This document shows, piece by piece, positions 1,706-33,473 of a stretch of DNA of 42,082 nucleotides. The notes under the pieces were generated by a model. The model searched no databases. It was not told the origin of the DNA and saw only the letters and a program-made list of their open reading frames with translations. Source of the DNA: Eubacteriales bacterium (GTDB lineage Bacteria > Bacillota > Clostridia > Oscillospirales > CAG-272). The stretch spans positions 1 to 42,082 of the forward strand of contig JAZNOD010000135.1 in the NCBI GenBank assembly GCA_045580585.1, given 5' to 3'. Positions within the stretch are counted from its first letter, which is position 1. Each line of letters starts with the position of its first letter. The position numbers and the translations under genes are program-made.

Positions 1706-3148
<1,443 letters not shown>

Positions 3149-3213
3149 TTATAACTACCCTCATCCGTCAAAGTTGCAAAGGCAACTTTGACACCTTCCC
3201 CCTAGGGAAGGCA

Positions 3214-4023
3214 TTACTCGCCTGCTCCGGCGACTATCTCTGTTATCTCCTGGGTTATCGCGCCCTGACGCGCACGGTTATATTTGAGCTGAAGATCATC
3301 AATCATAGCCGTTGCATTCTTTCCGGCGCTGTCCATTGCCATTCGCCTTGCCGCAATTTCAGAGGCAAAGCTCTCGCGAATAGCGCACATGAGCATTCCC
3401 GACACATATTCCGGAATTGCCGCATCAAGCACGCTTCGCTCATCCGGCTCAAATATCATACCGGTTGACTGAGCATTATCCGCACGCTTAAGCGGTAAAA
3501 TCCAATCTATCTCCGCGGTCTGCGTCATCATGGAAGCATACTTCGTGGAAATAATGCCAAGTCGGTCATATTCGCCTTTTACAAAGTCCTCGCACAGCGC
3601 TCTTGCAAGCTTATACGCATCCTTGGATGTGTATTTTTCCGACGAATTTTGCTCTTCGCCATATTTGTCGCACGCGCGCTTTCCTATCGGAATAAACTGT
3701 GCCCCAAAATAATTTGCCGCAAGTCTGAAAACATTAGCGTTGTATCCACCGGCAAGGCCTCTGTCGCCTGAGATAACAATTATACGTGTGCGGGAAATAT
3801 CATCACCGCGAATCTGCATATACGCACTCTTTTGACATTCCGCAGAAGCACAAAGTGCACCGATAAAGCTATCAAGAGATGCCTTATATTCACGGCCCTT
3901 TCTCATGCCCTCATTGGCACGGCGCATTTTCGAGGATGCCACAAGCCCCATCGCCTTTGTGAGGTGGAGCGTTGAGTCAACGCTTTTTATGCGCACCCGC
4001 AGTGCTTTTATATCAGCCCCCAC
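3214..4023 (-). CDS. atpG: F1 ATP synthase gamma subunit
   Basis: 269 aa. The N-terminus (IKALRVRIKSVDSTLHLTKAM) and the C-terminus (LQLKYNRARQGAITQEITEIVAGA) are typical of gamma. Operon position also fits. Confidence 0.93.
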   Translation of the reverse strand: MGADIKALRVRIKSVDSTLHLTKAMGLVASSKMRRANEGMRKGREYKASLDSFIGALCASAECQKSAYMQIRGDDISRTRIIVISGDRGLAGGYNANVFRLAANYFGAQFIPIGKRACDKYGEEQNSSEKYTSKDAYKLARALCEDFVKGEYDRLGIISTKYASMMTQTAEIDWILPLKRADNAQSTGMIFEPDERSVLDAAIPEYVSGMLMCAIRESFASEIAARRMAMDSAGKNATAMIDDLQLKYNRARQGAITQEITEIVAGAGE

Positions 4024-4025
4024 GA

Positions 4026-5552
4026 CTATGCACCTCTTGTTTCGTTAAGGTCGGTGCGAAGACGGTTAAGCTCGTTTATGGCTACCTCCAGCTCGTCGAT
4101 GTCCGACTGCTCCCAGAATCCTGCCTCCAGACGTGCAAGCAGGTCCACATACTTAGCCTCAAGCAGCTCATACAGTGCCTTTTCCCAAACGCTCACGTTC
4201 TTAACCGCAACGCCGTTAAGGAAGCCGTGAATAACCGCATAAACTATCGCCACCTGACATCCGACACGAACAGGACTGTTTCTTCCCTGCTTTAAGACTT
4301 CAACTATACGCTCACCGAGCGCAAGTCTTGCCTTGGTGTCTGCATCAAGGTCGCTTCCAAACTGCGCGAATGCTTTAAGCTCAAGATACTGCGAATATAA
4401 AAGCTTAAGCTCGCCCGAAACCTTTTTCATAGGCTTTAACTGTGCGGAACCGCCAACGCGGCTTACGGAAATACCGGGGTTTATAGCCGGCATAACACCG
4501 GAATGGAACAGCTCTGTTTCAAGGAATATCTGACCGTCTGTTATGGAAATTACGTTTGTCGGAATATACGCCGAAACGTCACCCGCCTGCGTTTCGATAA
4601 GCGGCAGTGCGGTTATTGAGCCTCCGCCGTATTCGGGTGCCACGCATGCCGCGCGCTCAAGAAGACGGGAATGGAGATAGAATACGTCACCGGGATATGC
4701 TTCTCTGCCCGGGGGACGTCTGATAAGGAGCGACAGTGCGCGGTATGCAACCGCGTGCTTTGAAAGGTCATCGTAAACGATAAGCACATCCTTGCCTTGC
4801 TCGCGGAAATATTCCGCCATAGCGCAGCCCGAATAGGGTGCGATATACTGCAGAGGAGCACTTTCCGACGCAGACGCGGCAACAATAGTGGTATATTCCA
4901 TAGCACCGCAGCGAGCAAGCTCATTTGCAATCTGCACCACGGATGTGTTCTTCTGACCTATAGCAACGTAAATACAGATAACGTTCTGTCCCTTTTGATT
5001 TATGATAGTGTCAATCGCGATTTCCGTTTTACCGGTCTGGCGATCGCCAATAATAAGCTCGCGCTGACCGCGTCCGATCGGTATCATGGAGTCTATTGCC
5101 TTGATGCCGGTCTGAAGCGGTACGGATACGCTTTTTCTCTCGATTATACCGGGAGCCTCCGACTCAACCGGGCGAGTAGCCGTGTATTCAATCGGGCCCT
5201 TGCCGTCAATCGGCTGACCGAGCGCGTCAACAACTCGTCCAAGCATAGCGTCACCGACAGGCACGGAAAGAACGTTTCCGGTACGCTTTACAGTAGAGCC
5301 CTCTCGGATACTGTTCTCGTTTGAGAGAAGTGCAACAGATACGGTTTCATTCTCAAGATTTTGCGCCATGCCGAAGCTTCCGTCGTCAAACTCCAAAAGC
5401 TCGTTTGCCATGCAGTTTTTGAGTCCGTACACACGTGCGATACCGTCACCGACCAAAACCACGCTTCCGGTTTCGGTCATTTCGATTTTCGCTTTATAGT
5501 TTTTGATTTGATCTTTTATTATATTTCCGATCTCATCGGGTCGAAGATTCAT
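4026..5552 (-). CDS. atpA: F1 ATP synthase alpha subunit
   Basis: 508 aa. Walker A GDRQTGKT and conserved alpha-subunit motifs. Confidence 0.97.
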
Positions 5553-5595
5553 TTAGTTATGACCGTAACTTTTATAAAGTTTCCTTTCTTCGAAG

Positions 5596-6126
5596 TTAGT
5601 TGCCGATAGAATCGCCAATTTTGGCAAGCTTCGCCTTAAGACTCGCATCCATTATATTGCCGTCCGCCCTAACGATAAATCCGCCAAGAATTGACGTATC
5701 AACATCACAAACAAGCTCAACTTTGCGTGAAAGCTTTTTTTGAAGTTTTTCGCGAAGTGCATCAAGCTGAGCGTCACTAAACGGTGCCGCGCTTGTAACA
5801 TGCGCCGTAACAATACCGTCAGATGCCTCGTAAAGCTTTAAAAACTCTTCGGCACATTCAGAAAAATCACGTATGTGTCCGCGCTCACAAAGAAGCTTCA
5901 GAAATGACACGGCGTACTCGTGAAGAAATTCTCCAAACGCCTTGTCAATAAGCTCACAACGCTCGCACATCGGAATGTTCGGCGATGCGAGAAGGTCGGT
6001 GTACTCGATGTTTTCACTCATTATATCCCTAAGTGCCTTAACCGAGTCGGCGACCTCACGCTTAACATTTTGTTCTGCCGCAAGCGCAAAAAGTGCCTGC
6101 GAATATTCTTCTGCAATCTGTGTCAT
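5596..6126 (-). CDS. atpH: F1 ATP synthase delta (OSCP) subunit
   Basis: 176 aa in the operon position between b and alpha. OSCP-like sequence. Its start shares nucleotide 6126 with the atpF stop (ATGA overlap). Confidence 0.88.
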   Translation of the reverse strand: MTQIAEEYSQALFALAAEQNVKREVADSVKALRDIMSENIEYTDLLASPNIPMCERCELIDKAFGEFLHEYAVSFLKLLCERGHIRDFSECAEEFLKLYEASDGIVTAHVTSAAPFSDAQLDALREKLQKKLSRKVELVCDVDTSILGGFIVRADGNIMDASLKAKLAKIGDSIGN

Positions 6127-6626
6127 TATTCGTCACCGATACTGTTTATAGCGGAATCGATAAGTGCGCTGTGATCCTTTTCATTAACCTCGCGCTCGAT
6201 AAGCTTTCCCGCGATCATAGTAGACACCGCTGCAATCTCACGCTTCACGTCGGACTCCGCCTTCTTCTTGTCAAGCTCGATCTGCTCATGCGCCGCACGT
6301 ACAATTCCCTCGGCATCTTCTTTTGCCTCGGCAACGATACGAGCCGCATGTCGCTTCGCCTCATCTGCCGCATTTTTTCTCATTTCACTTGTCTCATGCT
6401 CGGCATGAGAAAGCTTTTCTTCGTATTCCGCCTGACTTGCAAGAGCTGCCGTCTTGGCTGCATCTGCCGCGGCATAGTCACTCTCGATAGCAGCACGCCG
6501 CTTATCAAGCACACTCTGTACCGGTTTAAAAAGAAACTTTTTGAAAATCAGAAACAGAATGAGCAGATTTGCAAGAGATGCGAGCATCTGCCATAGATTG
6601 ACGGAAATAACTTCCATATTGCCCAT
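6126..6626 (-). CDS. atpF: Fo ATP synthase b subunit
   Basis: 166 aa. A single N-terminal TM helix is followed by a long charged helical region (AEEKLSHAE..., KKKAESD...). Confidence 0.9.
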   Translation of the reverse strand: MGNMEVISVNLWQMLASLANLLILFLIFKKFLFKPVQSVLDKRRAAIESDYAAADAAKTAALASQAEYEEKLSHAEHETSEMRKNAADEAKRHAARIVAEAKEDAEGIVRAAHEQIELDKKKAESDVKREIAAVSTMIAGKLIEREVNEKDHSALIDSAINSIGDE

Positions 6627-6643
6627 TAAACTTCACCTGTATT

Positions 6644-6943
<300 letters not shown>

Positions 6944-6957
6944 TTATTTTCGTTTTA

Positions 6958-7863
6958 TTATTTTTCCGCTTTAGCGGCTTTTTTCGCTTTAAGAGCCTCC
7001 CAGTCGTCAACCGCAAATCCGCTTGACACATAAAGCATGGTCAGCATTGCGAATATAGACGCCTGCAGGCATCCGCTGAATATGTCGAAATACAGGGAAA
7101 ATACAGCGGGAATGCCCACCTGGAAGATTGGGATATCGGAAAGAAAACCAGGAAGCCAACCGAGTGCCATTTTCGACAGTCCCTGAAGCACTGCAGCAAT
7201 AAGCACCGATATAACACTTCCCGAGATAACGTTTCCGTAGTGACGCAAAGCCATCGAAACGGGTGTTGCAACTTCACTTATAATGTTAATCGGTGTAAGC
7301 GGCCACGGATTGCAGAAGCTAAGCGCGTAGTGAACGGGACCGCACTTCATTTTGTAATACGTGATAAGCACGAAAACGATTATTGCCCAGCCGCCAACGA
7401 TATTCATATCAGATGTCGGCGGATAAAGTCCGACAAGAGTTATAAGACTCGAAAGAGCCGAGAGTCCCATAATCGCGGCGATAAACGGTGGAAATCCGCC
7501 GAAGTATTTGTCCGCCCCCATGTTGGTGCGCACCATTGACTGCACTGTTTGAACAATCCATTCAGCCGCCATTTGCCGTTTTGTTTCAACTCCGGCACGA
7601 ATACCGTGAGTGAAATACAGACAAAGGAAGAAAAGCGTAATCATTACCGCCAATGAGTTAACCTGTGACTCGGTTATCGGGAAGTCCTGCAAGGGCATCG
7701 GAAGTATAAAAAATATCTGTGCACCGGCTATTTCTATACCGCTTCCTGCAGGCTTTGTCAGCACCTTTAAAATCATGGCGCTAAGGATCGGCAGTATCAT
7801 CATCGCAATGTAGAAAATATCTACCGCGCGGAAGGTCGAGGTTCTTTTACTGCTCATTTGCAT
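6958..7863 (-). CDS. atpB: Fo ATP synthase a subunit
   Basis: Polytopic membrane protein with the conserved stator arginine context SMALRHYGN. I prefer ATG 7863 as the start because GGAGG lies 6 nt upstream. Confidence 0.9.
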   Translation of the reverse strand: MQMSSKRTSTFRAVDIFYIAMMILPILSAMILKVLTKPAGSGIEIAGAQIFFILPMPLQDFPITESQVNSLAVMITLFFLCLYFTHGIRAGVETKRQMAAEWIVQTVQSMVRTNMGADKYFGGFPPFIAAIMGLSALSSLITLVGLYPPTSDMNIVGGWAIIVFVLITYYKMKCGPVHYALSFCNPWPLTPINIISEVATPVSMALRHYGNVISGSVISVLIAAVLQGLSKMALGWLPGFLSDIPIFQVGIPAVFSLYFDIFSGCLQASIFAMLTMLYVSSGFAVDDWEALKAKKAAKAEK

Positions 7864-8269
7864 TCTCACCTCCACTGCCCGCCGACTTTAAAAACATCGG
7901 ACGCAGCTTCACCGCAACGCTTGGGAACAAAAGCGGTATCAGCACAGCTATCACATCAAAGCACGGCACCAAAAATCCCACTACCATAAACGCCACAAGT
8001 AAAAAATTGCGAAGCGTCATGGAGAGCTTCATCAGATTCTTGGCTTCCTTTTCCTCCTTGGAAACCGCACTTTGAACGGTAAGGCCCATCAAGAAGAAAT
8101 TAAGCACTGCTGCGAATATGCCAAGCAGATTTCCGAGAAGCACGGTAATATTCCATTTACCGATAACAAGGAAGACAGCCTCCATTAAGACGGACAGTAT
8201 CAAAGTCCACGCCGCAACGTACACGGTTTCGCGGCGAACAACAGCATCTATTTTTTTCATAGTCGGCAA
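7847..8269 (-). CDS. atpI: ATP synthase protein I (AtpI-like small membrane protein)
   Basis: 140 aa with about four TM helices. It is the first gene of the atp operon. TTG start at 8269 with GGAGG 6 nt upstream. Confidence 0.75.
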   Translation of the reverse strand: MPTMKKIDAVVRRETVYVAAWTLILSVLMEAVFLVIGKWNITVLLGNLLGIFAAVLNFFLMGLTVQSAVSKEEKEAKNLMKLSMTLRNFLLVAFMVVGFLVPCFDVIAVLIPLLFPSVAVKLRPMFLKSAGSGGENANEQ

Positions 8270-12511: not shown

Positions 12512-12529
12512 GCAATGTTCATATAGAAG

Positions 12530-12562
12530 AGGTGATGCACTGACATGCGTCACCTTTCTTTT
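12530..12562 (+). terminator. rho-independent terminator after the GH4 gene
   Basis: Stem aggtgatgca / tgcgtcacct (one G-U pair) followed by TTCTTTT. Confidence 0.65.
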
Positions 12563-12620: not shown

Positions 12621-12649
12621 TTGACATAAAATAAATTGTGTGATATAAT
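12621..12649 (+). promoter_or_regulatory. consensus sigma-A promoter of the aspS-gatCAB operon
   Basis: TTGACA (12621-12626), 17-nt spacer ending in TGTGA, TATAAT (12644-12649). Confidence 0.75.
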
Positions 12650-12655
12650 ATTACA

Positions 12656-12918
12656 TAGATTGTTGCAGTGACGAAGAGAGTAACGTCTGGCAAGCTTGCA
12701 GAGAGTCGTCGGCTGGTGTAAGACGGCAGTGAGCCACACGCGAAAAACACTTCCGAGCACGCGGAAGAACGCGGAGCATTTCCGTTAGTAGAACCGCACG
12801 TTGATCGCGTTAAGATTTAATTAAGGTGGACTCCACAAGCATTGCTTGTGCGTCAATTTGGGTGGTATCGCGGAAGCTGTCTTTCGTCCCATGTTTATGG
12901 GCGAGGACGGTTTTTTTG
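12656..12918 (+). promoter_or_regulatory. T-box leader riboswitch, probable Asn (AAC) specifier
   Basis: AGAGAG motifs; distal-loop GCTGGTG; candidate specifier GAAAAACA with AAC at 12746-12748 followed by A; T-box sequence AATTTGGGTGGTATCGCGG at 12855-12873; terminator hairpin plus a T7 run at 12885-12917, immediately upstream of aspS. Confidence 0.8.
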
Positions 12919-12963: not shown

Positions 12964-14739
12964 ATGTTAAGAACACACAACTGTAATGAGCTCACTAAAG
13001 CCAATATCGGCGAGCGTGTAACCCTCACCGGCTGGATCGACACAGTCCGCGACCACGGAGGTGTACTTTTCCTTGACCTTCGTGACCACTACGGCGTAAC
13101 ACAGATCGTCGTAAATGACGATAAAATGATCGCCGGCATGCCCAAGGAAACTGTTATCCTCGTTGAAGGAAACGTAACCGAAAGAGATGCCGAAACCGTA
13201 AACGCAAAAATTGCAACCGGTATGATCGAAGTACGTGCCGACAAGATCGAGGTTCTCGGTCCCTGCCAGCTCGGCCTTCCCTTTGAGATCGACGCTTCCA
13301 CCGAAACCCGCGAGGAAGTAAGACTCAAATATCGCTACCTCGACCTTAGAAACAGAAAGATACACGACAATATTGTTCTGCGCTCCAAGATACTTTCCTA
13401 TCTTCGCTCAGAGATGGAGGATATGGGATTTCTTGAGATCCAGACTCCCATACTCACCGCTTCCTCTCCCGAGGGTGCGCGTGACTATCTCGTTCCCAGC
13501 CGTAAGCACAAGGGCAAGTTCTACGCTCTTCCCCAGGCTCCCCAGCAGTTCAAGCAGCTTTTGATGGCGTCCGGCTTTGACCGTTACTTCCAGATTGCCC
13601 CCTGCTTCAGAGATGAGGATGCGCGTCAGGACAGATCTCCCGGAGAATTTTATCAGCTCGACTTCGAGATGTCCTTCGCAACACAGGAGGACGTATTCGC
13701 AGTTGCAGAGAAGGTTGTATACAACACCTTCAAGAAGTTCTCTGACAAGCCCGTATCCGAGCCGCCCTTCACACGCATCACATTTGCCGATGCAATGCTC
13801 AAATACGGTACTGACAAGCCCGACCTTCGTAACCCTCTTATCATAAAGGATCTCACAAACTTTTTCGCTACTCACGATTTCCTTGAGATCAACGGACGTA
13901 CCATTCCCTTTAAAAACAAGCTTGTTCGCGGTATCGTTGCAAACTATCTTGTTAAGAAGGACGGAGAGGGCGACGGCAAGAAGGCATTTGAAAAGGCTAT
14001 CGACGCATACTCTCGCAGTATCGGCATGAAGTTCGGCTGCGGATATATCACTCTTGAGGATGGAGAATTCAAGGGACCTATCGCGAAGTTCCTCTCCGAT
14101 GCGGAAAAGGCAGAGCTTGTGGAGCTTTGCGGCATCAAGGAGGGCGATTCCCTCTTCTTCATCAGCGACACTCCTGCAGTTATCAACTCTTTGGCAGGTC
14201 AGATGCGCACATGGATCGCAAATGAGCTCGGACTTATCAACAAGGACTCCTTCGAATTCTGCTTCATCGTTGACTTCCCGATGTATGAGCGCAATGAGGA
14301 AACCGGCAAGATCGACTTTACCCACAATCCCTTCTCTATGCCTCAGGGCGGAATGGATGCGCTTCTTAATAAAGATCCGCTTGAGATCTTCGCATATCAG
14401 TACGACATCGTCTGCAACGGCGTAGAGCTTTCGTCCGGTGCTGTCAGAAACCACAATCCCGAAATCATGAAGAAGGCATTTGAGATTGCGGGCTATGGCG
14501 AAGAGGATGTTAAGGCAAAGTTCGGCGCGCTTTACACCGCGTTCAGCTACGGTGCTCCTCCTCACGCAGGTATGGCTCCCGGCGTTGACAGAATGATCAT
14601 GCTTATCGCTGGCGAGGAAACTATCCGTGACGTAATCGCATTCCCGCTTAACGGAAACGCACAGGATCTCATGATGGGTGCTCCGAGCGAAGTCACCGAG
14701 CTTCAGCTCCGCGAAGTGCATATCAAGGTAAGAGATTAA
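12964..14739 (+). CDS. aspS: Aspartate--tRNA ligase, bacterial type (probably non-discriminating given the linked gatCAB)
   Basis: Start MLRTHNCNELT at ATG 12964 with a GGAGG RBS. The ORF-track start at 12826 runs through the T-box leader. Class II aaRS motifs are present (FRDEDARQDRSPEF, GAPPHAGMAPGVDR). Confidence 0.95.
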   Translation: MLRTHNCNELTKANIGERVTLTGWIDTVRDHGGVLFLDLRDHYGVTQIVVNDDKMIAGMPKETVILVEGNVTERDAETVNAKIATGMIEVRADKIEVLGPCQLGLPFEIDASTETREEVRLKYRYLDLRNRKIHDNIVLRSKILSYLRSEMEDMGFLEIQTPILTASSPEGARDYLVPSRKHKGKFYALPQAPQQFKQLLMASGFDRYFQIAPCFRDEDARQDRSPGEFYQLDFEMSFATQEDVFAVAEKVVYNTFKKFSDKPVSEPPFTRITFADAMLKYGTDKPDLRNPLIIKDLTNFFATHDFLEINGRTIPFKNKLVRGIVANYLVKKDGEGDGKKAFEKAIDAYSRSIGMKFGCGYITLEDGEFKGPIAKFLSDAEKAELVELCGIKEGDSLFFISDTPAVINSLAGQMRTWIANELGLINKDSFEFCFIVDFPMYERNEETGKIDFTHNPFSMPQGGMDALLNKDPLEIFAYQYDIVCNGVELSSGAVRNHNPEIMKKAFEIAGYGEEDVKAKFGALYTAFSYGAPPHAGMAPGVDRMIMLIAGEETIRDVIAFPLNGNAQDLMMGAPSEVTELQLREVHIKVRD

Positions 14740-14988: not shown

Positions 14989-15279
14989 ATGCTTATAACC
15001 GATAAAGAATCCTTTATCCGTCTGCAAAAGCTCAACCAGCTGGCTCTTACAGAAGAAGAGTCTGCCGCAACCATTGCATTCTTCGAAGCAAGAAATGCAG
15101 AGATTGCCGCTATGGATGCTGTTGACACCGAAAATGTTGAGCGCATGGTGCACGTAATGCCTATGTTCACAGTTGTACGCGAGGATAAGGAGATCAAACT
15201 CTTCACACGTGACGAGCTTCAGAAGTCCGCGCCCGAGTCCTATGAGGGCTACTGGCAGGTACCTCGTCTGGTTGAATAA
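14989..15279 (+). CDS. gatC: Asp/Glu-tRNA amidotransferase subunit C
   Basis: 96 aa from the internal ATG (MLITDKESFIRLQKL...) with an AAAGGA RBS. The C-terminus ...LQKSAPESYEGYWQVPRLVE is typical of GatC. Confidence 0.85.
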   Translation: MLITDKESFIRLQKLNQLALTEEESAATIAFFEARNAEIAAMDAVDTENVERMVHVMPMFTVVREDKEIKLFTRDELQKSAPESYEGYWQVPRLVE

Positions 15280-15294
15280 TTAGGGGGAACTAAG

Positions 15295-16494
15295 ATGAAG
15301 CTTTATATTAACAAAAATGAGAGTGTGGCATCCTCGGCTGTTATACTTGACGATATGATGCTCACCACCGAGCTTCCCACCACCGCAGGCTCGAAAATGC
15401 TCGATGGCTACATGAGCCTTTTTGAAGCAGAAGCGGCAAAGAAGCTTAAAGCGGCAGGATATTCCATCTCCGGCAAGGCAAACGTCGGCGAGTTCGGAAT
15501 CGATCTGCTTGGCGAAACATCCTACTTCGGTGCCATCACCGATGAAAACGGAAATCTCACACTTGCATCTGCCGAGCTTCTCAAGAACGGCGAAGCTAAT
15601 GCAGCTGTGGGACTTGATGTAAACGGCGCACCGCGACGTGCGGCGGCACTCGGCGGTCTTGTTTATATCAAACCGACCTACGGTACTGTATCACGCTATG
15701 GAACGATTCCAGCAGCTTGCTCCGGTGAATGTGTCGGCGTTATGGCAAGCACCGTATCCGACTGTAAGCAGGTTCTTGGCTCTATCGTCGGTCACGACGA
15801 CAAGGACGGAACATCCCTTCCCGAAGAAAAGTGTGCGCTTGTTACAAACGGCGCGGCAAATCTTAAAAGAGCCGCTGTTATAAAGACATTCACAAAGGAT
15901 ATCGACGCTGCAACAGCTGAAAAAATCGCGTCGGCCAAGGCTTCGCTTGAATCTAACGGCGTAAGCGTTGACGAAATTGACTGCGATGTGCTTGCATTTG
16001 CGAAAACAGCATGGAGTGTTCTCATGTGTGCCGAGCTTTGCAACAACGTGTCGCGCTACGACGGCGTGAAGTACGGTCACAGAAGTGAAAACTACACCAC
16101 TATAGGTGAGCTTTACACAAACAGCCGTACAGAAGCATTTGGTGAGCTTACCAAAACCGCTATCCTCTACGGTTCTGAAACGCTTTCCGACGACAACTAC
16201 ATGCCTGTATACGACAAATCCATGCGTGTACGCCGCGTGATCGTTGAAGCGCTCGCAAAGCTTTTCGAGGAGTATGACGTTCTCATTCTCCCCGCATGCT
16301 CCAAGGCTGCATATACTGAGGCTGACACCAAGGCAAACAAGTATATCTCCTTTGATGAGGCACTCTACACAGCACCTGCTTCAATTTCCGGTATTCCTGC
16401 GGCTATAGCCGGCGGAGTACAGCTTCTCGGCAAGGCATTTTCCGAGAACACTCTCTTTGAAGTGGCAAAGATAATAACAAAGGAGGGCAAATAA
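15295..16494 (+). CDS. gatA: GatA-like amidotransferase subunit A homolog with a degenerate amidase signature (short, 399 aa)
   Basis: Lies between gatC and gatB. Clear GatA homology is visible (TTAGSKML, IKPTYGTVSRYG). The GGSSGGS...GGSIRQP signature instead reads GNLTLAS...NGAPRRA. Confidence 0.8.
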   Translation: MKLYINKNESVASSAVILDDMMLTTELPTTAGSKMLDGYMSLFEAEAAKKLKAAGYSISGKANVGEFGIDLLGETSYFGAITDENGNLTLASAELLKNGEANAAVGLDVNGAPRRAAALGGLVYIKPTYGTVSRYGTIPAACSGECVGVMASTVSDCKQVLGSIVGHDDKDGTSLPEEKCALVTNGAANLKRAAVIKTFTKDIDAATAEKIASAKASLESNGVSVDEIDCDVLAFAKTAWSVLMCAELCNNVSRYDGVKYGHRSENYTTIGELYTNSRTEAFGELTKTAILYGSETLSDDNYMPVYDKSMRVRRVIVEALAKLFEEYDVLILPACSKAAYTEADTKANKYISFDEALYTAPASISGIPAAIAGGVQLLGKAFSENTLFEVAKIITKEGK

Positions 16495-16495
16495 G

Positions 16496-17938
16496 ATGAG
16501 ATATGAAACCGTCATCGGTCTTGAGGTTCATGTAGAGCTTGCAACCGAGTCGAAAATATTCTGCTCCTGCTCCGCAAAGTTCGGCGGCGAACAGAACGAT
16601 CACGTTTGCCCTGCGTGCTGCGGAATGCCCGGCATGCTTCCCGTTGTAAACAAGCATGTTGTTGACCTCGGTATGACAGCCGGTATGATGCTTAACTGCC
16701 ATATCAACCGCACAACAACATTTGATAAAAAGAGCTACTACTATCCCGACCTTCCCTGCTCTTATCAGACAACCCAGTGGTTCGCTCCCGTCGCCGTTAA
16801 CGGCACCGTGGACATCGAAACCTCAAAGGGTAAGAAGTCTATCCGCATCAAGCAGATCCACATGGAAGAGGACGCGGGTAAGCTCGTTCACGATGACTGG
16901 ACCGACACCTCGCTCGTTGACTTCAACAGAACCAGCGTGCCGCTTATCGAGATAGTTTCCCAGCCCGACCTTTCAAGCGCAGAAGAAGTTATCGCTTATC
17001 TTGAGCGTCTGCGCTCCCTCCTCAGATTTGCAAAGGTTTCCGACTGCCGCATGGAGCAAGGCTCGATGAGATGCGACGTTAACCTTTCCGTTCGTCCCGA
17101 GGGCTCCGACAAGCTCGGTGTACGCACCGAGATGAAGAACATGAACTCCCTCACCGCTATCACCCGTGCCATCGAGTATGAGGTTGCACGTCACATCGAT
17201 GCACTTGAAAACGGCACAGAGGAGCTTGTTCAGGAAACACGCCGCTGGGATGACATCAAGGGCAAGTCCTACGCTATGCGTAACAAGGAAACAGCCGGTG
17301 ACTACCGCTACTTCCCCGATCCTAACATCATGCCCGTTGTTATTGACGACGAGTGGTATGATGGTATTAAAGCTTCACTTCCCGAGTTTCCCGAGATCAA
17401 GCGTGCTCGCTATACAGGCGAGCTTGGTCTTACAGAGTATGACGCAAACCTTCTCACCGAAAGCCGCGCATTCTGCGATGCTTTCGAAGCGGCACTTGCC
17501 GTATGCGGCTCGGCAAAGGAAGTTGCAAACTGGCTCATTTCCGACTGCATGAATCTTCTTAACCGCAAGCAGATGACCGTTGATGAACTGAATATCGACG
17601 GAAAGGCGCTCGGCGCGCTCATCAAGCTCTGCATGGACGGCACTGTTAACCGCGGCAACGCCAAGAAGATACTCAGCGTTATGTTCGACTCCGACACACC
17701 CATCGATCCTGCAAAGTATGCCGAGGAGAACGGATTTATCGTTTCCAACGACACCGGCAAAATGGATGAAGTTATCAAAGCAGCCGTTGCTGCTGATCCA
17801 AAAGCCGTAGCCGATTTCAAGGGCGGCAAGGAAAAGGCACTTCTCGCAATTTTCGGAAAGTGTATGAAGGAGCTTCGCGGCAACTGTGATCCGCAGATCC
17901 TTCGTGAAGCACTTCTTAAGTATATTGATAAGGTTTAA
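16496..17938 (+). CDS. gatB: Asp/Glu-tRNA amidotransferase subunit B
   Basis: 480 aa. The N-terminus MRYETVIGLEVHVELATESKIFCSC is canonical GatB. A YqeY-like tail is present. Confidence 0.95.
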   Translation: MRYETVIGLEVHVELATESKIFCSCSAKFGGEQNDHVCPACCGMPGMLPVVNKHVVDLGMTAGMMLNCHINRTTTFDKKSYYYPDLPCSYQTTQWFAPVAVNGTVDIETSKGKKSIRIKQIHMEEDAGKLVHDDWTDTSLVDFNRTSVPLIEIVSQPDLSSAEEVIAYLERLRSLLRFAKVSDCRMEQGSMRCDVNLSVRPEGSDKLGVRTEMKNMNSLTAITRAIEYEVARHIDALENGTEELVQETRRWDDIKGKSYAMRNKETAGDYRYFPDPNIMPVVIDDEWYDGIKASLPEFPEIKRARYTGELGLTEYDANLLTESRAFCDAFEAALAVCGSAKEVANWLISDCMNLLNRKQMTVDELNIDGKALGALIKLCMDGTVNRGNAKKILSVMFDSDTPIDPAKYAEENGFIVSNDTGKMDEVIKAAVAADPKAVADFKGGKEKALLAIFGKCMKELRGNCDPQILREALLKYIDKV

Positions 17939-17972: not shown

Positions 17973-19532
17973 ATGAAAAAATTACGTCTTCTTTCTCTTT
18001 TAGTTGCAGTTATTATCATCTTTTCACTTGTTCCGATGAGCGCGGCGAACAAAACCGTATTTCGCACCTCGGCAAGTGAAGACAACTATGTTCAGTTCAC
18101 AATTTCTGGCAACACCTTAACCGTTGAGGGTAAAATCGTTTCCGAAGATCTTGCAAGCATTTGGATGCGTTCCAAGGAGATAACCAAGCTTAATGAATAC
18201 AGCAAGATCATTGACGCAAAAAGCGGTGAATATTTCCGCGAAACGCTCTCACTCGCAGGCATTTCCGAGCCCACAAACATCACCTTGTATACAAGAAAGT
18301 CCACTGATGAGGCTAATCGCTTCTGGGGATTTATCTGGAAAGATGTTGTTGTTGAGCCGTCTGCTTCCGGATACCGTTTTGTCACATCAAGCATCGAGGC
18401 GCACAACCTTGATATGTACAATCACTGGGTTAATCCGGCGGATGAGCTTGGCGTAACCTCCGACAAGGTAAAGGCAGTGTCCGATGAGATATGCAAAGGA
18501 CTCACAAATAATCACGACAAGGTCTTTGCAATCTACAAGTGGGTTACTGAAAATCTTTACTACGACTACGACTACTACTACGGCAAGCGCGATCTTATTC
18601 ACTATAAAGCCGATGATGTCCTCGACTGTCATCTCACCGTGTGTGCAGGCTATGCCGACCTTTTAAAAGAGCTTCTTTGGGCACAGGGTATTCCTGCTAT
18701 GGAGGTTGACACCTATGCCGCAGGCATTAGTGTGGAAGATTTCGGCACTGCTGCTCCCGGCGCAACCGAGAGCAACCACGCTCACGTTGAAGCATGGGTA
18801 GACGGACACTGGATGATAATGGACGCAACATGGGATTCCAACAACAAATATGAAGACGGAATATTCATAACAAAGGCACCTTCTGACTATAAGTATTTTG
18901 ACATCAGCATCGACACCTTCTCATATGACCACAAAATATTGGTAAGAGATTCTGCCGCTCCCAAGGACACTCCTGCATCGTGGGCACAGCCCGAAGTGAT
19001 CGCCGCACTTGCAAACGATCTTGTTCCGGGTGAGCTCCAGCATGACTATGCGAGTGATATCAGCAGACACGATTTCTGCACACTTCTCATGAGTGCAATT
19101 TGTCATTATGAGGGAGTGGACACTATTGAGGAGTTGTTAAAACTCAAGGGAATCACCCTTAAGGCTTCCCCGTTTGTTGACGATAAGGGACTCGCTGTTA
19201 TCGCGGCAAATCTTCTCGGTATCGTAAACGGAACTGATGCTACACACTTTTCTCCCGATGCAAATATCAAGCGTCAGGAAGCAGCAACAATGATCCGTCG
19301 CGCAGCAACCGTGCTCGGCTTGCATGAGGGCACCGAAATAGCGAAGTTTGCGGACACAGCAAAGCTTCCCGCGTGGGCGCTTGACGGTATCAACTTCACA
19401 TCATCGCTTGTATCAGACCATGGTGCTCGCGTCATGGGCGGTGTGGGCAACAACAACTTCGACCCGAGCGGAACATTCACCGTTCAGCAGTCGATCCTCG
19501 CACTCTACCGTCTGTTTGACACACATCAGTAA
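17973..19532 (+). CDS. Secreted transglutaminase-like cysteine protease-fold protein with three C-terminal SLH repeats
   Basis: Signal peptide MKKLRLLSLLVAVIIIFSLVPMSAA. Transglutaminase core: Cys (TVCAGYADLL), His (HAHVEAWVDGHW), Asp (MDATWD). Three SLH-like repeats in the last ~190 aa. Confidence 0.8.
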   Translation: MKKLRLLSLLVAVIIIFSLVPMSAANKTVFRTSASEDNYVQFTISGNTLTVEGKIVSEDLASIWMRSKEITKLNEYSKIIDAKSGEYFRETLSLAGISEPTNITLYTRKSTDEANRFWGFIWKDVVVEPSASGYRFVTSSIEAHNLDMYNHWVNPADELGVTSDKVKAVSDEICKGLTNNHDKVFAIYKWVTENLYYDYDYYYGKRDLIHYKADDVLDCHLTVCAGYADLLKELLWAQGIPAMEVDTYAAGISVEDFGTAAPGATESNHAHVEAWVDGHWMIMDATWDSNNKYEDGIFITKAPSDYKYFDISIDTFSYDHKILVRDSAAPKDTPASWAQPEVIAALANDLVPGELQHDYASDISRHDFCTLLMSAICHYEGVDTIEELLKLKGITLKASPFVDDKGLAVIAANLLGIVNGTDATHFSPDANIKRQEAATMIRRAATVLGLHEGTEIAKFADTAKLPAWALDGINFTSSLVSDHGARVMGGVGNNNFDPSGTFTVQQSILALYRLFDTHQ

Positions 19533-25764: not shown

Positions 25765-27216
25765 ATGGAAAACCAAAAATGGTATGAGAATATGTATTAT
25801 CTCAACCGCGACCCCGACTGGGACTGCGATTGGATATGGACACAGGAAGGGATGGACGATTCCACTCCCGAGTCCTGCATAAAAGGTATTGAAAAAATCT
25901 TTGGTGAATATCAAAATCCCATCACCGATGCCGGACTTTGCCTATTCTGTCAGGTTGCGCTTCTGCCCTCAAAAGCATACACATGGGGCGGTGAACGCTG
26001 GCCGGAATATTACAACAGAATGCCGGATGCAGCAAAAAGATGGAAGCGCCCGTACAAAATGTTTGCAGAATACAAAATCGACCCGGTTCAGATTTTTATT
26101 GACACCGTAAGAAAAAACAACATCCGTCCGTGGGCATCGTTCAGAATTAACGATATTCATCCGCCGTCAATCCCCACACGCATGTATGTTGAGTGCGCGG
26201 AATCAGATCAGATGGTGGGAAGCCACAACTTCTACAGCTTCCGCCGCAACTGCTTCGATTTTGCCTATCCCAAATACAGAAATGCACTTCGAGATTTAAT
26301 CAAGGAAGTGTTTGACAAGTACGATTTCTTCGGTATTGAGCTTGACTTCATGCGCGAGCCGTATTGCCTTGACTACAAGGGTAATCCCGAATGTCATAAG
26401 ATAATGACCGAATATATCAGAGAGATAAAGGGCATCATGCGCGAGGCTGAAAAACGTCTTGGACATGACATAAAGATATTTATAAGAGTTCCTTCCACCC
26501 CGTCCACATGTATGGAGTTCGGCTTCGATGTGAAAACAATGGTAGACGAAGGTCTTGTTGACGTTGTAGCTCCTGCTCCGCATCAGGTATGCACCGACAG
26601 CGGTATTTCCGTAAAGGAATGGAAAGAATGGGTTGGCAACAAGGTTCCGATAGTTCCCGGAATCGAATCTTCCAATCTCAAATGCACCTCCAACACCACT
26701 GTACCCCTCACAAAAGGATATCTCGCCTCTTTCTTCGGTCAGGGGGCTGAGGGCGCACATCTTTACAACTATTTCATGAGCCCTTTTCATGTGGATACAT
26801 GGAAGATTACAAGAGAAGACGTGCTTCGCGGCACTCGCCAGTTTATCGTAACATACCAGGACTGCTTCGCATATGAGGAAAACCAGTATAAGCCGCTTCC
26901 GATGCGAGTTGACTGCAAAGCAACACTTCCGCTCGAGGTAGGTCGTATAAAGTCCACCGATAAGGTAAGCGTTATTATTGACTATGAGGGCGATACAGCA
27001 CCCACTCTTTCTGTAGCTGGCAAAGAAAATGTCACCGCTGTTCAGATCGAGCCTATCATCCGTCCCGGTCAGGGTCCGGACGGCATGGCGAACCTCACCG
27101 AACACACACCGCTCTCTTTTGACATCAGCGGCATCGAAACTCCGTCGCATCTCGACCCTACATTCAACGGAAAAGGTACAGTACACTATGTAGAGCTCGA
27201 GATCGATGCAAAATAA
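25765..27216 (+). CDS. Paralog 1 of an unassigned ~480-aa cytoplasmic protein family (predicted TIM-barrel glycosidase-like domain plus C-terminal beta domain)
   Basis: 483 aa with a GGAGG RBS. N-terminus MENQKWYENMYYLNRDPDWD. Motifs RINDIH, ELDFMREPYCLDY, IRVP, VPGIE, GQGAEGAHLYNYF. C-terminus GTVHYVELEIDAK. No signal peptide or TM helix. Confidence 0.85.
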   Translation: MENQKWYENMYYLNRDPDWDCDWIWTQEGMDDSTPESCIKGIEKIFGEYQNPITDAGLCLFCQVALLPSKAYTWGGERWPEYYNRMPDAAKRWKRPYKMFAEYKIDPVQIFIDTVRKNNIRPWASFRINDIHPPSIPTRMYVECAESDQMVGSHNFYSFRRNCFDFAYPKYRNALRDLIKEVFDKYDFFGIELDFMREPYCLDYKGNPECHKIMTEYIREIKGIMREAEKRLGHDIKIFIRVPSTPSTCMEFGFDVKTMVDEGLVDVVAPAPHQVCTDSGISVKEWKEWVGNKVPIVPGIESSNLKCTSNTTVPLTKGYLASFFGQGAEGAHLYNYFMSPFHVDTWKITREDVLRGTRQFIVTYQDCFAYEENQYKPLPMRVDCKATLPLEVGRIKSTDKVSVIIDYEGDTAPTLSVAGKENVTAVQIEPIIRPGQGPDGMANLTEHTPLSFDISGIETPSHLDPTFNGKGTVHYVELEIDAK

Positions 27217-27244
27217 ATGGTATATATTTTGGAGGTAAACACTT

Positions 27245-28681
27245 ATGGAAAACAAGAAATGGTATGAAAACATGTTCATGCTCAACCGCGACCCCGACTG
27301 GGACTCGAAATGGCTTTGGGAAAGCAAAGGAAGAGATGATTCCACCAAAGAAGCATGTGAAAAAGGTATAGAGGAGATCTTCGGCGGATATCGAAATCCA
27401 CTGACCGACGTAGGACTTTGCCTGTTCTGTCAGGTTGCACTGTTCCCCACCGACAAGCACCTTTGGGGCGGCAGAATGTTCCCTCTTTACAGATACAATG
27501 ACGGCGCAGGCTGGCGTTGGAAACGTCTTAATATGATCTATGAGGATTACAAGCTTGACCACGTTCAGATGTTCATAGACCAGACTAAAAAGCACAATAT
27601 AAGACCTTGGGCAACCTTCAGAATGAATGACTGCCATTCTTCGAACACTCCTACAGCACTCAAGGTAGAAGCAATAGAGGGCGGAATGGTTGTCGGAAAT
27701 GAATACGGCTATTACCGTCACTGCTTCGACTTCTCCTATCCGAACTACAGAAGCGCACTTCGCGACGTTATCAAGGATGCTGTTGACAGATACGATTGGT
27801 TTGGTGTTGAGCTTGACTTCACTCGTGAACCGTATTGCTTTGACTATAAAAATAACCCCGAATGTCATAAGATCATGACAGAGTATGTCCGCGAGATCAA
27901 GGAAATTGTTTCAAACGCGGAAAAGCGTGTCGGTCACAAGATACAGATACTTATCCGAGTTCCCGCCACTCCTTCCACCTGCCTTGAGTTCGGCTTCGAT
28001 ATCAAGACAATGGCAGAACAAGGACTCATTGACGCAGTAAATCCCGCTCCCAGATGGGCACACAGCGACAGCGGTATTCCGATAAAAGAATGGCATGAGC
28101 TGGTAAATTATAAAATTCCCGTACTCGCAGGCATCGAGCAGATGAATGTTGACTACACCGTTACCACGCTCGAAATGGTAAAGGGTTACGTAGCCGCGTT
28201 CTACGGTCAGGGCGCAGACGGTATTTCGCTCTACAACTACTTCAATTCCTATACTCCCCCGAGCCCTTGGGATATCTCAAAGGAGGTTGCACTTGAGGGT
28301 AAACGTCAGTTTGTCGTAACCGATCAGGACTGCTTCGCATATCCGGAAAACCGTTACAAGCCCCTTCCGCTTGAGATTAGCGGCAAGGTAGAGCTGCCCC
28401 TTGAGGTAGGTCTTATCAAAGCAAATGACAGCGCGTGTATCATCATCGACTTTGATGGAGATGTAATGCCTACTCTCACAGTTAACGGAAAAGAAATTGC
28501 AGCCGTTAAGTGCGAGCCGGTTGAGCGCAGAATTGCCGGTAAGCAGGAAAACCTCAATCTTACCCCGCATAATCCGCTCTCGTATGACATAAGCGGAATT
28601 GAAACGCCTTCCTCGCTTAATCTTACATTCAGCGGAAGTGGTACTGTACACTACGTTGAGGTTGTAATAGACGCAAAATGA
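27245..28681 (+). CDS. Paralog 2 of the same family
   Basis: 478 aa. It starts 28 nt after paralog 1 with a GGAGG RBS. By eye it is roughly 60 percent identical to paralog 3. It ends with a TGA stop. Confidence 0.85.
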   Translation: MENKKWYENMFMLNRDPDWDSKWLWESKGRDDSTKEACEKGIEEIFGGYRNPLTDVGLCLFCQVALFPTDKHLWGGRMFPLYRYNDGAGWRWKRLNMIYEDYKLDHVQMFIDQTKKHNIRPWATFRMNDCHSSNTPTALKVEAIEGGMVVGNEYGYYRHCFDFSYPNYRSALRDVIKDAVDRYDWFGVELDFTREPYCFDYKNNPECHKIMTEYVREIKEIVSNAEKRVGHKIQILIRVPATPSTCLEFGFDIKTMAEQGLIDAVNPAPRWAHSDSGIPIKEWHELVNYKIPVLAGIEQMNVDYTVTTLEMVKGYVAAFYGQGADGISLYNYFNSYTPPSPWDISKEVALEGKRQFVVTDQDCFAYPENRYKPLPLEISGKVELPLEVGLIKANDSACIIIDFDGDVMPTLTVNGKEIAAVKCEPVERRIAGKQENLNLTPHNPLSYDISGIETPSSLNLTFSGSGTVHYVEVVIDAK

Positions 28682-28687
28682 CACCAT

Positions 28688-28717
28688 GTGCTCTGCCGGT
28701 AACGGCAGAGCATTCTT
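28688..28717 (+). terminator. rho-independent terminator after paralog 2
   Basis: Stem gtgctctgccg-gtaa-cggcagagcat followed by TCTT. Confidence 0.65.
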
Positions 28718-28747
28718 GTAAAAACGCAAAAAATCTCATAATATATC

Positions 28748-28776
28748 TTGACTTCCTCTTTGCGATATGGTATAAA
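28748..28776 (+). promoter_or_regulatory. promoter of paralog 3
   Basis: TTGACT (28748-28753), 17-nt spacer, TATAAA (28771-28776). The surrounding sequence resembles 25701-25735. Confidence 0.6.
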
Positions 28777-28820
28777 TATTATGACATAACTGCATGTCAA
28801 TATTTTTGAGGTGACTACTA

Positions 28821-30263
28821 ATGGAAAACAAGAAATGGTATGAAGGCATGCACATGCTCAACCGCGATCCCGACTGGGATACTTCCGGACTTTGGGACAG
28901 AATGGAAAGAGATGAATCCACTCCGGAAGCATGCAAAAAAGGAATTGAGGAAATTTTCGGTTCATACAGAAAGCCGCTGACCGACGTTGCGCTCTGTCTG
29001 TTTGCACAGGTTGCGCTACTCCCTGCGAAGTCATACATCTGGGGCGGAACATTCTGGGAGCTTTACAGATACTCTAACCGTGACGGAGCGCTCAGATGGA
29101 GACGCCCGCACATGATTTTCAAGGAATACGGACTTGATCCCGTTCAGATATTTATCGACCAGACAACAAAGAACGGTATAAGACCTTGGGCAACATTTAG
29201 AATGAATGACTGCCATCCTCCGAGAATTGCAACAGCTATGTATGCAGAAGCTGTAGAAAACGGACAGGTTGTCGGTGAGTCCTACGGCTACTACCGCCAT
29301 TGCTTCGATTTTGCATATCCGAAATACAGAAACGCAGTTCGTGATCTTATTAAAGAAGTTTTCGACAAGTACGATTTCTTCGGACTTGAGCTTGACTTCA
29401 TGCGCGAGCCGTACTGCTACGACTATAAGAACAACCCCGACTGCCACAAAATGATGATCGAGTATCTGCGTGAGATCAAGTCGATCATGCTTGAAGCAGA
29501 AAAGCGTGTAGGTCACGAAATAAAGATACTTATAAGAGTTCCCTCCACCCCCATCGCCTCCTTACAGTTTGGTTTTGATGTTAAGACCATGGCAGATGAA
29601 GGACTTATCGACGCTGTAACCCCCACACCGAGATGGAGAACCAGCGACAGCGGTATTCCCGTAAGAGAGTGGAAAGAGCTTGTCTGCGACAAGATCCCCG
29701 TAATCCCCGGTATAGAATATCTTAACCTTGAGTATACATATACCGATGTCAACATGGCAAAGGGATACTTTGCTTCCTTCTTCGGTCAGGGCGCTGACGG
29801 CAGTTATCTCTACAACTTCTTCAATCAAAGCGGAACTCCCAGCACTTGGGACATCACCAAGGAAAATTGCCTTGAAGGCATGCGTCAGTTCATCGTAACC
29901 GACCAGGACATAGCCGCATATCCCGAAAACCGTTATCTGCCGCTTCCAATGGCGGTTGATGGCACGGCAGAGCTTCCGATCGAGGTTGGTCTTATCAAGC
30001 CCACCGACGATGTAACTCTCATTATAGACTTTGAGGGCGAGGGCGAGCTTACTGTTTCCGCACTCGGCAGAGAAAATGTTGCCGGTGTTAAAATCAACCC
30101 CGTAACAAGAAAAATCTGCGGCAAGCCGGAGTCTGCAAACCTTACACCTCACAGACCTCTTGCATTTGATTTCAGCGGCTGTGAAACTCCCGCTCCAATG
30201 AATCTCACCTTCACCGGAAACGGAACCGTTCACTACGTTGAGGTTATGATCGACGCTAAATAA
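28821..30263 (+). CDS. Paralog 3 of the same family
   Basis: 480 aa. N-terminus MENKKWYEGMHMLNRDPDWD. All family motifs are present. Confidence 0.85.
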   Translation: MENKKWYEGMHMLNRDPDWDTSGLWDRMERDESTPEACKKGIEEIFGSYRKPLTDVALCLFAQVALLPAKSYIWGGTFWELYRYSNRDGALRWRRPHMIFKEYGLDPVQIFIDQTTKNGIRPWATFRMNDCHPPRIATAMYAEAVENGQVVGESYGYYRHCFDFAYPKYRNAVRDLIKEVFDKYDFFGLELDFMREPYCYDYKNNPDCHKMMIEYLREIKSIMLEAEKRVGHEIKILIRVPSTPIASLQFGFDVKTMADEGLIDAVTPTPRWRTSDSGIPVREWKELVCDKIPVIPGIEYLNLEYTYTDVNMAKGYFASFFGQGADGSYLYNFFNQSGTPSTWDITKENCLEGMRQFIVTDQDIAAYPENRYLPLPMAVDGTAELPIEVGLIKPTDDVTLIIDFEGEGELTVSALGRENVAGVKINPVTRKICGKPESANLTPHRPLAFDFSGCETPAPMNLTFTGNGTVHYVEVMIDAK

Positions 30264-30269
30264 CTACCT

Positions 30270-30303
30270 TCCGCGCTGTAATATTGCAGCGCGGATGTTT
30301 TTT
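30270..30303 (+). terminator. rho-independent terminator after paralog 3
   Basis: Stem tccgcgctg / cagcgcgga followed by TGTTTTTT. Confidence 0.8.
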
Positions 30304-30333
30304 CAAATTTTCCATATTGGGCGACAATATTGC

Positions 30334-30362
30334 TTGACGTGCAAATGTAAATGCTGTATTAT
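30334..30362 (+). promoter_or_regulatory. promoter of paralog 4
   Basis: TTGACG (30334-30339), 17-nt spacer, TATTAT (30357-30362). Confidence 0.55.
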
Positions 30363-30396
30363 GTAAATATGATTACAGGCTTGGAGGTAACTTCAC

Positions 30397-31821: not shown

Positions 31822-31827
31822 TTCAAG

Positions 31828-31861
31828 CTTCGCTGTGACATGTTCACAGCGAAGTTTTTTG
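31828..31861 (+). terminator. rho-independent terminator after paralog 4
   Basis: 11-bp stem cttcgctgtga / tcacagcgaag followed by TTTTTT. Confidence 0.85.
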
Positions 31862-31908
31862 TAAATTCCACTCGTTTTTTTAATATGTTATCTATTTTTA
31901 AAAATGGG

Positions 31909-31937
31909 TTGACATCCCCCAAAATATGTGATATAAA
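31909..31937 (+). promoter_or_regulatory. promoter of paralogs 5-6
   Basis: TTGACA (31909-31914), 17-nt spacer, TATAAA (31932-31937). Confidence 0.6.
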
Positions 31938-31999
31938 TAAAGTTAATAAGCGATCTTTATCGCGGAAAGGATGCTGTTTTGCAGCAGCTACAGATTTGT

Positions 32000-33449: not shown

Positions 33450-33473
33450 AATAAATACCAAGGAGATTTTATC

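Follow-up and report, generated by a model that had tools for sequence, protein, structure and literature searches.

The gatCAB operon of an Eubacteriales bacterium, contained in a stretch of 42,082 nt (contig JAZNOD010000135.1 of assembly GCA_045580585.1, analysed as a whole and hereafter called the window), encodes a GatA homologue, here named GatA', in which the three residues of the catalytic triad are replaced and which is predicted to be unable to act as an amidase-signature glutaminase. The gene is nonetheless under purifying selection, lies between a canonical gatC and a canonical gatB, and belongs to a large family found in gut bacteria. GatCAB is treated as an obligately Gln-dependent enzyme, in which a gated ammonia tunnel couples the glutaminase activity of GatA to GatB. 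GatA', instead, is probably a pseudo-glutaminase retained for a structural role, with the amide nitrogen provided by ammonia made outside GatA.

In GatCAB, the kinase and transamidase chemistry is performed by GatB, GatA only provides ammonia via a hydrophilic tunnel, and GatC is required for the folding of GatA and for its binding to GatB (PMC2330236). The triad of GatA is Ser-cisSer-Lys, corresponding to S154-cisS130-K52 in the yeast protein (PMC4027206), and the nucleophile of the Staphylococcus aureus enzyme is Ser178 (PMC2330236). Here, we describe the sequence, the predicted fold, the family and the genomic context of GatA', and we weigh the possible sources of ammonia for an amidotransferase of this kind.

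Active site and fold of GatA'

GatA' matches the Pfam Amidase model (PF01425) with 184.5 bits. Among the NCBIfam models the top match is TIGR00132 (gatA), but at 252.8 bits, below the equivalog cutoff of 481.1. By sequence, the proteins of known structure closest to GatA' are the GatAs of Thermotoga maritima, Pseudomonas aeruginosa, S. aureus, Aquifex aeolicus and Thermus thermophilus (E = 9e-54 to 5e-40), with about 32% identity to the aligned fragment of the T. maritima protein. Residue numbering was anchored on S. aureus GatA, whose sequence is 100% identical to chain 2df4_A, and the active-site positions of GatA' were read from HMMER and MAFFT alignments, which agree with each other.

The triad of S. 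aureus GatA is formed by S178, S154 and K79, the last being located within the motif 'GIKDN' and equivalent to yeast K52. In GatA', the position of the cis-Ser S154 is occupied by Leu88 and that of the nucleophile S178 by Ala112, 24 residues apart, exactly as the first-pass annotation of this DNA had placed them; in fact, the comparison with GatA alignments and with the profile hidden Markov model (HMM) reveals no Ser at the triad positions. The same annotation had taken Lys34, in 'GSKML', for a retained catalytic Lys. This assignment does not hold, T. maritima GatA having an Arg at that site; the true position, aligned with K79, is Asp19, and therefore three triad residues are lost in GatA' and not two. 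The first observation was correct and understated.

The changes extend around the triad. The GGSS/oxyanion motif is gone (GGSSGG becomes GNLTLA), with Val in place of T175 and Asn in place of G176. Furthermore, the residues that bind Gln in S. aureus GatA, namely Tyr309, Arg358 and Asp425 (10.1101/733030; yeast counterparts D418/R334, PMC4027206), are replaced by W240, A289 and A356, respectively. Many of the altered positions, therefore, fall inside the known glutaminase site. Of 76 sites with a conservation of 90% or more in canonical GatA, GatA' retains 41, including KPTYG.VSR.G, D234/D237/T239, E316, N320, R323-D325-G326 and R347/F351/G352. With triad, GGSS motif and Gln-binding residues all replaced, the expectation of the first-pass annotation that the subunit would be unable to hydrolyse Gln as an amidase-signature enzyme is borne out at the level of the alignment.

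GatA' is also shorter than its homologues. It has 86 aa less than S. aureus GatA, close to the about 85 aa estimated earlier; the loss at the N-terminus amounts to about 60 residues, more than the about 50 of that estimate, and most of the remaining shortening is explained by a shorter C-terminus and by the loss of two internal segments, one of 6 aa ahead of the GGSS motif and one of 9 aa. The N-terminus is not extendable because gatC fills the sequence upstream: the stop codon of gatC is at 15279 and the ATG of gatA', preceded by the ribosome-binding site AGGGGGA, follows only 15 nt further on. A misplaced start codon hiding the missing residues was thus ruled out, as gatC leaves no space for them.

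The AlphaFold model of GatA' is confident (predicted local distance difference test, pLDDT, 92.8; predicted TM-score, pTM, 0.92). The ten best matches of this model in the PDB are all GatA chains of GatCAB or GatFAB, with TM-scores normalised to the query (TMq) of 0.81-0.87. On the basis of this prediction, the GatA fold is retained.

Family, selection and operon context

The protein search returned thousands of relatives of GatA'. The best 120 of these are nearly all 390-403 aa long (five are of 410-423 aa) and show 61-98% identity to GatA'; the counts that follow refer to these sequences together with GatA' itself (121 in total). At the Lys position Asp is found in 119 sequences and Glu in 2, and Leu occupies the cis-Ser position in 118. 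The nucleophile position is instead variable, being Ala in 57 sequences, Thr in 36, Ser in 21, Met in 5, and Tyr and Cys in one each. Several former active-site positions carry residues that are specific to the family: D19 (98%), N110 (92%), R115 (almost invariant), E145 (100%) and W240 (100%). E145 presumably takes the place of the tunnel residue Asp211.

A scan of one genome per species identified at least 80 loci with the GatA' form, all in metagenome-assembled genomes (MAGs) and all from gut or faecal metagenomes, namely ruminant, horse, deer and other samples; the sequencing runs that contain the window are likewise all metagenomes of this kind. The closest of them, at 90% identity, is labelled Candidatus Flemingiibacterium, and others belong to Oscillospiraceae, Acutalibacteraceae, Christensenellaceae, Pumilibacteraceae and, at about 50% identity, to two Coriobacteriia. 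In the latter two MAGs (L078 and L080; Eggerthellaceae and Coriobacteriaceae) the short triad-less GatA' is accompanied by gatC and gatB, with no aspS or T-box, an occurrence that suggests horizontal transfer between phyla, or mis-binning.

Pairwise comparison of gatA' with seven relatives gave ratios of nonsynonymous to synonymous substitution rates (dN/dS) of 0.07-0.13, and the gene is under purifying selection. For gatB and aspS in the same seven pairs the ratios are 0.02-0.07, and either gene has about a third of the dN of gatA'. In canonical operons, used as a control, GatA and GatB diverge equally (53-59% and 54-55% identity, respectively), whereas in the operons with a dead, i.e., triad-less, GatA the identity of GatA' is about 6-22 points below that of its own GatB. 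The constraint on gatA' is therefore relaxed yet still strong, as expected after the loss of catalysis. A sequencing error and a pseudogene are ruled out by the 80 orthologues and by a dN/dS of about 0.1.

The operon itself is intact, and the earlier description of a T-box-aspS-gatC-gatA-gatB unit with normal GatB and GatC was accurate: the T-box exceeds its gathering score, and GatB and GatC are above the curated cutoffs and score as canonical (Table 1). The start of aspS agrees with that of the gene called in a 99%-identical contig (L001), in which the 96-aa gatC gene is also called, and gatB, the canonical kinase/transamidase subunit, starts 1 nt past the gatA' stop. The order gatC-gatA'-gatB is kept in the 80 genome loci wherever the contig reaches far enough, and aspS lies directly upstream in about 67 of them. 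In comparison with the bacterial GatCAB of S. aureus (2df4), T. maritima (3al0) and P. aeruginosa (4wj3), the window shows the same three-gene set, the same order and canonical GatB and GatC; GatA' keeps the GatA fold, as modelled, and about half of the conserved residues, but is without the triad (Ser-cisSer-Lys) and the GGSS motif, the Tyr, Arg and Asp that bind Gln, and about 60 residues at the N-terminus.

T-boxes were detected upstream of aspS in 11 of the 12 relatives tested, in addition to the window. Among the orthologous leaders (n = 12) the element GAA-R-AAC-R is invariant and the helix beneath it covaries; given the invariant AAC specifier, uncharged tRNA(Asn) is the predicted inducer of the operon. 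At the gathering threshold, no T-box was found in the family operons without aspS, nor in the human-gut clade, and the Asn T-box is therefore not universal to dead-GatA operons. The aspartyl-tRNA synthetase (AspRS) is presumed to be non-discriminating, and thus to charge tRNA(Asn), because aspS sits behind an Asn T-box and is linked to the amidotransferase genes in the operon. A similar arrangement has been described in Clostridium acetobutylicum, in which, according to the work cited there, an extra aspS-gatCAB set controlled by a T-box serves tRNA-dependent Asn synthesis (Saad et al. 2012, cited in PMC4206432). The two operons have in common the T-box leader followed by aspS and by a gatCAB dedicated to Asn-tRNA(Asn); however, the C. 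acetobutylicum system is described in that source as a working amidotransferase, whereas the GatA' of the window is predicted to be catalytically dead.

Table 1. Coordinates of the operon and of other features of the window.
Feature	Position	Strand	Description
F-type ATP synthase operon	1706-7875	-	a, b, delta, alpha, gamma, beta; syntenic with contig L001
Terminator-like hairpin	12528-12557		Closes upstream GH4 gene
Sigma-70-type promoter-like site	12621-12649	+	TTGACA, 17-nt spacer, TATAAT, with TG; 12/12 consensus match; just 5' of T-box
T-box leader	12659-12894	+	Rfam RF00230, 106.2 bits (gathering score 93)
Asn specifier codon AAC	~12746-12748	+	Within GAA-A-AAC-A, directly above basal helix
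aspS	12964-14739	+	Bacterial-type aspartyl-tRNA synthetase, 591 aa; NF001750, 764 bits (cutoff 443)
gatC	14989-15279	+	96 aa; TIGR00135, 59.8 bits (cutoff 47.1); PF02686
gatA'	15295-16494	+	399 aa; triad-less, N-terminally truncated GatA homologue; Gln-binding positions Trp240, Ala289, Ala356
gatA' codon Asp19	15349-15351	+	GAC; Lys position of the triad
gatA' codon Leu88	15556-15558	+	cis-Ser position
gatA' codon Ala112	15628-15630	+	Nucleophile position
gatB	16496-17938	+	480 aa; NF004012, 586 bits (cutoff 338); PF02934 and PF02637
Transglutaminase-like/SLH gene	17973-19532	+	Directly after gatB
Six tandem paralogues	25765-34916	+	~437-483 aa; 41-64% mutual identity
Split paralogue of this array	31979-32716, 32703-33449	+	Overlapping ORFs

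The gene that directly follows gatB encodes a protein with a transglutaminase core, an S-layer-homology (SLH) domain and a signal-peptide-like N-terminus; considered as a source of ammonia, it was ruled out, being cell-surface-like and conserved only in near-identical contigs. Among the other features of the window, those full-length copies of the tandem paralogues that were scanned have no Pfam match, and the two overlapping open reading frames (ORFs) into which one copy is split probably reflect a frameshift. A Gut-1 small RNA (RF01706, 61.6 bits) was found near one of the related operons (L066:6123-6197, minus strand).

Triad-less GatA in other lineages

The loss of the triad is not limited to the family of GatA'. 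In a wider survey, one representative per 50%-identity cluster was taken and the best 150 matches were considered (P0121-P0269); about half of these are without the K-S-S triad, in a list that is biased, the query itself being a dead GatA. Among the triad-less representatives, the Lys position is most often, and by a wide margin, acidic (Asp or Glu). Short triad-less forms of about 340-430 aa make up a deep group, to which the family of the window belongs and nearly all of whose members have one of these two residues at that position, and many full-length triad-less GatAs (470-500 aa), with triads such as DAA, DSA, TST, TCD, AAA and SAS, are nested among the canonical ones in a rough neighbour-joining tree. 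This nesting among canonical clades suggests repeated independent losses of the triad across GatA, their number depending on that tree. The genomic context is also conserved: in the six other triad-less lineages that were fetched the gene is always directly upstream of gatB, with gatC called directly upstream in four of them and a short upstream gene without a Pfam call in the other two.

No curated family is available for the dead GatAs, as all of the 60 triad-less representatives have TIGR00132 as their best match, and in literature searches no description of a gatCAB with a triad-less GatA came to light. The dead-GatA GatCAB is, apparently, an unreported variant of a known enzyme that is widespread in gut anaerobes.

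The residues fixed at the former active site, D19, N110, R115, E145 and W240, together with the recurrence of an acidic residue at the Lys position in most dead lineages, might indicate that GatA' acquired a new catalytic or ligand-binding function in its pocket, such as the hydrolysis of an amide by another mechanism or the sensing of NH4+, Asn or Asp. This explanation appears very improbable: the 60 triad-less representatives are without a common new polar constellation, and the residues that they have in common are conserved in canonical GatA as well; moreover, the family has no single residue at the nucleophile position (A, T, S or M) and no known amidase mechanism fits.

In one instance a dead and a canonical GatA are found side by side. 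In L085 (5450-12016), and likewise in L086, a gatC-gatA(dead)-gatB set is followed in tandem by gatC-gatA(K-S-S)-gatB. The two GatBs of L085 are 63% identical, and its dead GatA is full-length apart from the triad (D/-/A) and keeps Y309/R358/D425; since the Gln-binding residues are preserved, this copy looks like an early stage of decay.

Such a tandem raises the question of whether a second canonical gatA or gatCAB, located elsewhere in the genome, performs the Gln-dependent work, the GatA' complex being specialised or regulatory, or GatB pairing with the canonical GatA. Besides L085/L086, this explanation has in its favour that Clostridia such as C. acetobutylicum keep redundant AspRS/GatCAB sets, as reported in the source already mentioned (Saad et al. 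2012, cited in PMC4206432), and that a T-box specific only for Asn implies that Gln-tRNA is made by something else. However, with the exception of L085/L086, no second GatA-like gene was found in the 85 other loci screened (about 1.2 Mb of flanks), and within the 42-kb window there is no second canonical gatA, asnS, glnS or asnB. In addition, the gatA' gene has gatC on one side and gatB on the other in every genome; GatA' should therefore be made in step with their products and would compete with a canonical GatA. A redundant copy, moreover, would be expected to decay, yet dN/dS is about 0.1 across 80 species. The entry of a non-cognate GatA-like protein into the complex is toxic in the case of Tse8, an effector of the P. 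aeruginosa type VI secretion system with a GatA-like amidase fold (10.1101/733030). Tse8 resembles GatA' in that it has no GatA Gln-binding residues and joins GatB and GatC without a glutaminase role, but its triad is intact, its gene is not part of a gatCAB operon, and it is a toxin secreted to poison a foreign complex. On the whole, we consider a division of labour with a second GatA doubtful.

Source of the amide nitrogen

The model in which GatA' is a structural subunit is the best supported, because the protein, as predicted, is unable to bind or cleave Gln, yet it is under selection and is encoded between gatC and gatB. The first-pass annotation had already suggested a scaffold-only GatA, with free ammonia or another amide-donor partner. 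The first part of this proposal is sustained by selection, fold and operon context, as far as evidence of this type reaches, and the second is plausible; we infer both the scaffold role and the ammonia source.

In the proposed mechanism, T-box(Asn)-aspS-gatC-gatA'-gatB would be a module that makes Asn-tRNA(Asn) on the tRNA and that is switched on when tRNA(Asn) is uncharged. GatB would still phosphorylate and amidate Asp-tRNA(Asn), and GatA' may have been retained since GatB needs a GatA/GatC partner to form a stable amidotransferase and, possibly, a transamidosome with AspRS. The nitrogen would reach GatB as ammonia not made by GatA', most likely as free NH3/NH4+, entering through the remodelled and N-terminally uncovered glutaminase pocket and the tunnel, or directly at GatB. 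The fixed residues of the family may thus belong to an old pocket that has been plugged, or reshaped as an entry for ammonia, and the loss of the N-terminal helices could expose it.

Other enzymes provide terms of comparison. Ammonia-dependent counterparts of glutamine amidotransferases exist, such as the NH3-dependent NadE, and AsnA in comparison with AsnB, in which the synthetase half uses free ammonia; in NadE and AsnA the glutaminase domain is missing altogether, whereas in the case of GatA' it would be kept as an inactive shell. The 'vestigial' pair AtzE-AtzG (PDB 6c62), derived from GatA and GatC and present among the fold matches of GatA', indicates that the GatA-GatC pairing can outlast its ancestral function, although AtzE is active as an amidase, on a new substrate, and has no GatB partner.

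For the genome of the window, free ammonia is the simplest source, because the habitat is rich in ammonia, as the herbivore gut is, and no partner gene is found nearby. In vitro, tRNA-dependent amidotransferases (AdTs) accept 20 mM NH4Cl in place of Gln, bypassing the glutaminase (PMC4027206). As a rough division within the explanation that we prefer, free ammonia would have a chance not far below even, and a separate amidohydrolase a clearly smaller one.

The amidohydrolase has a specific candidate. Clustering of all the ORFs in the 80 loci revealed, as the most frequent real non-operon neighbour, an asparaginase-family protein of about 350 aa (PF00710, 85-98 bits). The gene occurs at 21 of the 80 loci; where both flanks reach 2.5 kb or more, it occurs at 14 of 40. 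In many cases it follows gatB in the same orientation, at a distance of 6-70 nt, and elsewhere it is found just 5' of the T-box, as in L018, or downstream in convergent orientation (examples are L062:3616-4671, L031:9200-10267 and L018:6424-7512, with 18 others, and the metagenome loci L092-L136). A reverse search of metagenomes showed that about half of the closest 45 homologues of this protein adjoin aspS/gatC/gatA'/gatB, and in one MAG GatA' and the asparaginase-like protein carry the tags E7456_04565 and E7456_04575. Two motifs are invariant in this protein family: TGGT, which contains the nucleophile Thr, and HGTDT. In profile comparisons a full-length alignment was obtained only with archaeal GatD (1zq1), with which the protein has in common the S-E substrate motif.

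In archaeal GatDE, ammonia is donated by GatD, an asparaginase-type subunit (PMC2330236), which feeds a GatB-type kinase/transamidase, and about a third of the dead-GatA operons carry the asparaginase/GatD-like gene. By analogy, a separate amidohydrolase of this kind could supply ammonia on a GatC/GatA'/GatB scaffold, as a bacterial counterpart of GatDE, its gene lying in this genome outside the 42-kb window; we regard this as unlikely, on account of several observations. The gene has no homologue in the window and is missing from all of the close relatives, four of which have at least 2.5 kb on both flanks and several more one long flank. The catalytic Lys of the Thr-Lys-Asp triad is replaced by a near-invariant Gln172, which leaves hydrolase activity in doubt. 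Against the curated models of type I asparaginase and of GatD, the protein falls far short of both cutoffs; it is also without the N-terminal domain of GatD, and by fold it groups broadly with the type I asparaginases (TM about 0.70). Two operons whose GatA is canonical (K-S-S; L116 and L126) have the gene as well, and therefore it is not strictly a replacement for the glutaminase; in L018 it precedes the T-box. Unlike GatDE, finally, the dead-GatA operons retain GatB, GatC and the shell of GatA.

A broader formulation, to which we assign the same low probability, is that many gut anaerobes run a glutaminase-less GatCAB and that, in a large subset of them, the asparaginase/GatD-like protein became the ammonia-producing subunit, converging on GatDE. 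In such a hybrid, GatA would have decayed after the recruitment of the new donor, as the two operons that still combine a canonical GatA with the asparaginase-like gene would illustrate. Although not established as such, the protein is a strong candidate for the role of alternative ammonia donor.

Several points weigh against the interpretation of GatA' as a scaffold supplied with external ammonia. The use of ammonia by bacterial AdTs has been reported only in vitro and at high concentration, and the model is built on sequence, fold prediction and context. A canonical gatA, asnS, asnB or a dedicated amidase may be present elsewhere in the genome, beyond the window, and the tandem of L085/L086 shows that dead and canonical gatCAB can co-occur. 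The conservation of polar residues in the former active site indicates that the pocket is still constrained, which scaffolding alone does not obviously demand. Moreover, the evidence of expression for gatA' is only patchy: in metatranscriptome X19 the contigs over gatA' are discontinuous and of low depth, and the high depth over aspS is due to cross-mapping.

If the proposed role of GatA' is correct, a large and selected family of dead-GatA GatCABs would show that the glutaminase half of the enzyme is dispensable in vivo, would offer a natural system in which the structural role of GatA is separated from the catalytic one, and would tie aminoacyl-tRNA synthesis to the ammonia-rich physiology of the gut. 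The finding also concerns the annotation of gut genomes: GatA' falls under the cutoff of its model and two of its homologues are named 'hypothetical protein' by NCBI, and therefore pathway reconstructions of gut MAGs may go wrong, scoring the synthesis of Asn-tRNA or Gln-tRNA as missing or as Gln-dependent when it is not. Finally, the recurrent asparaginase-like neighbour would represent a testable candidate for a new amidotransferase subunit.

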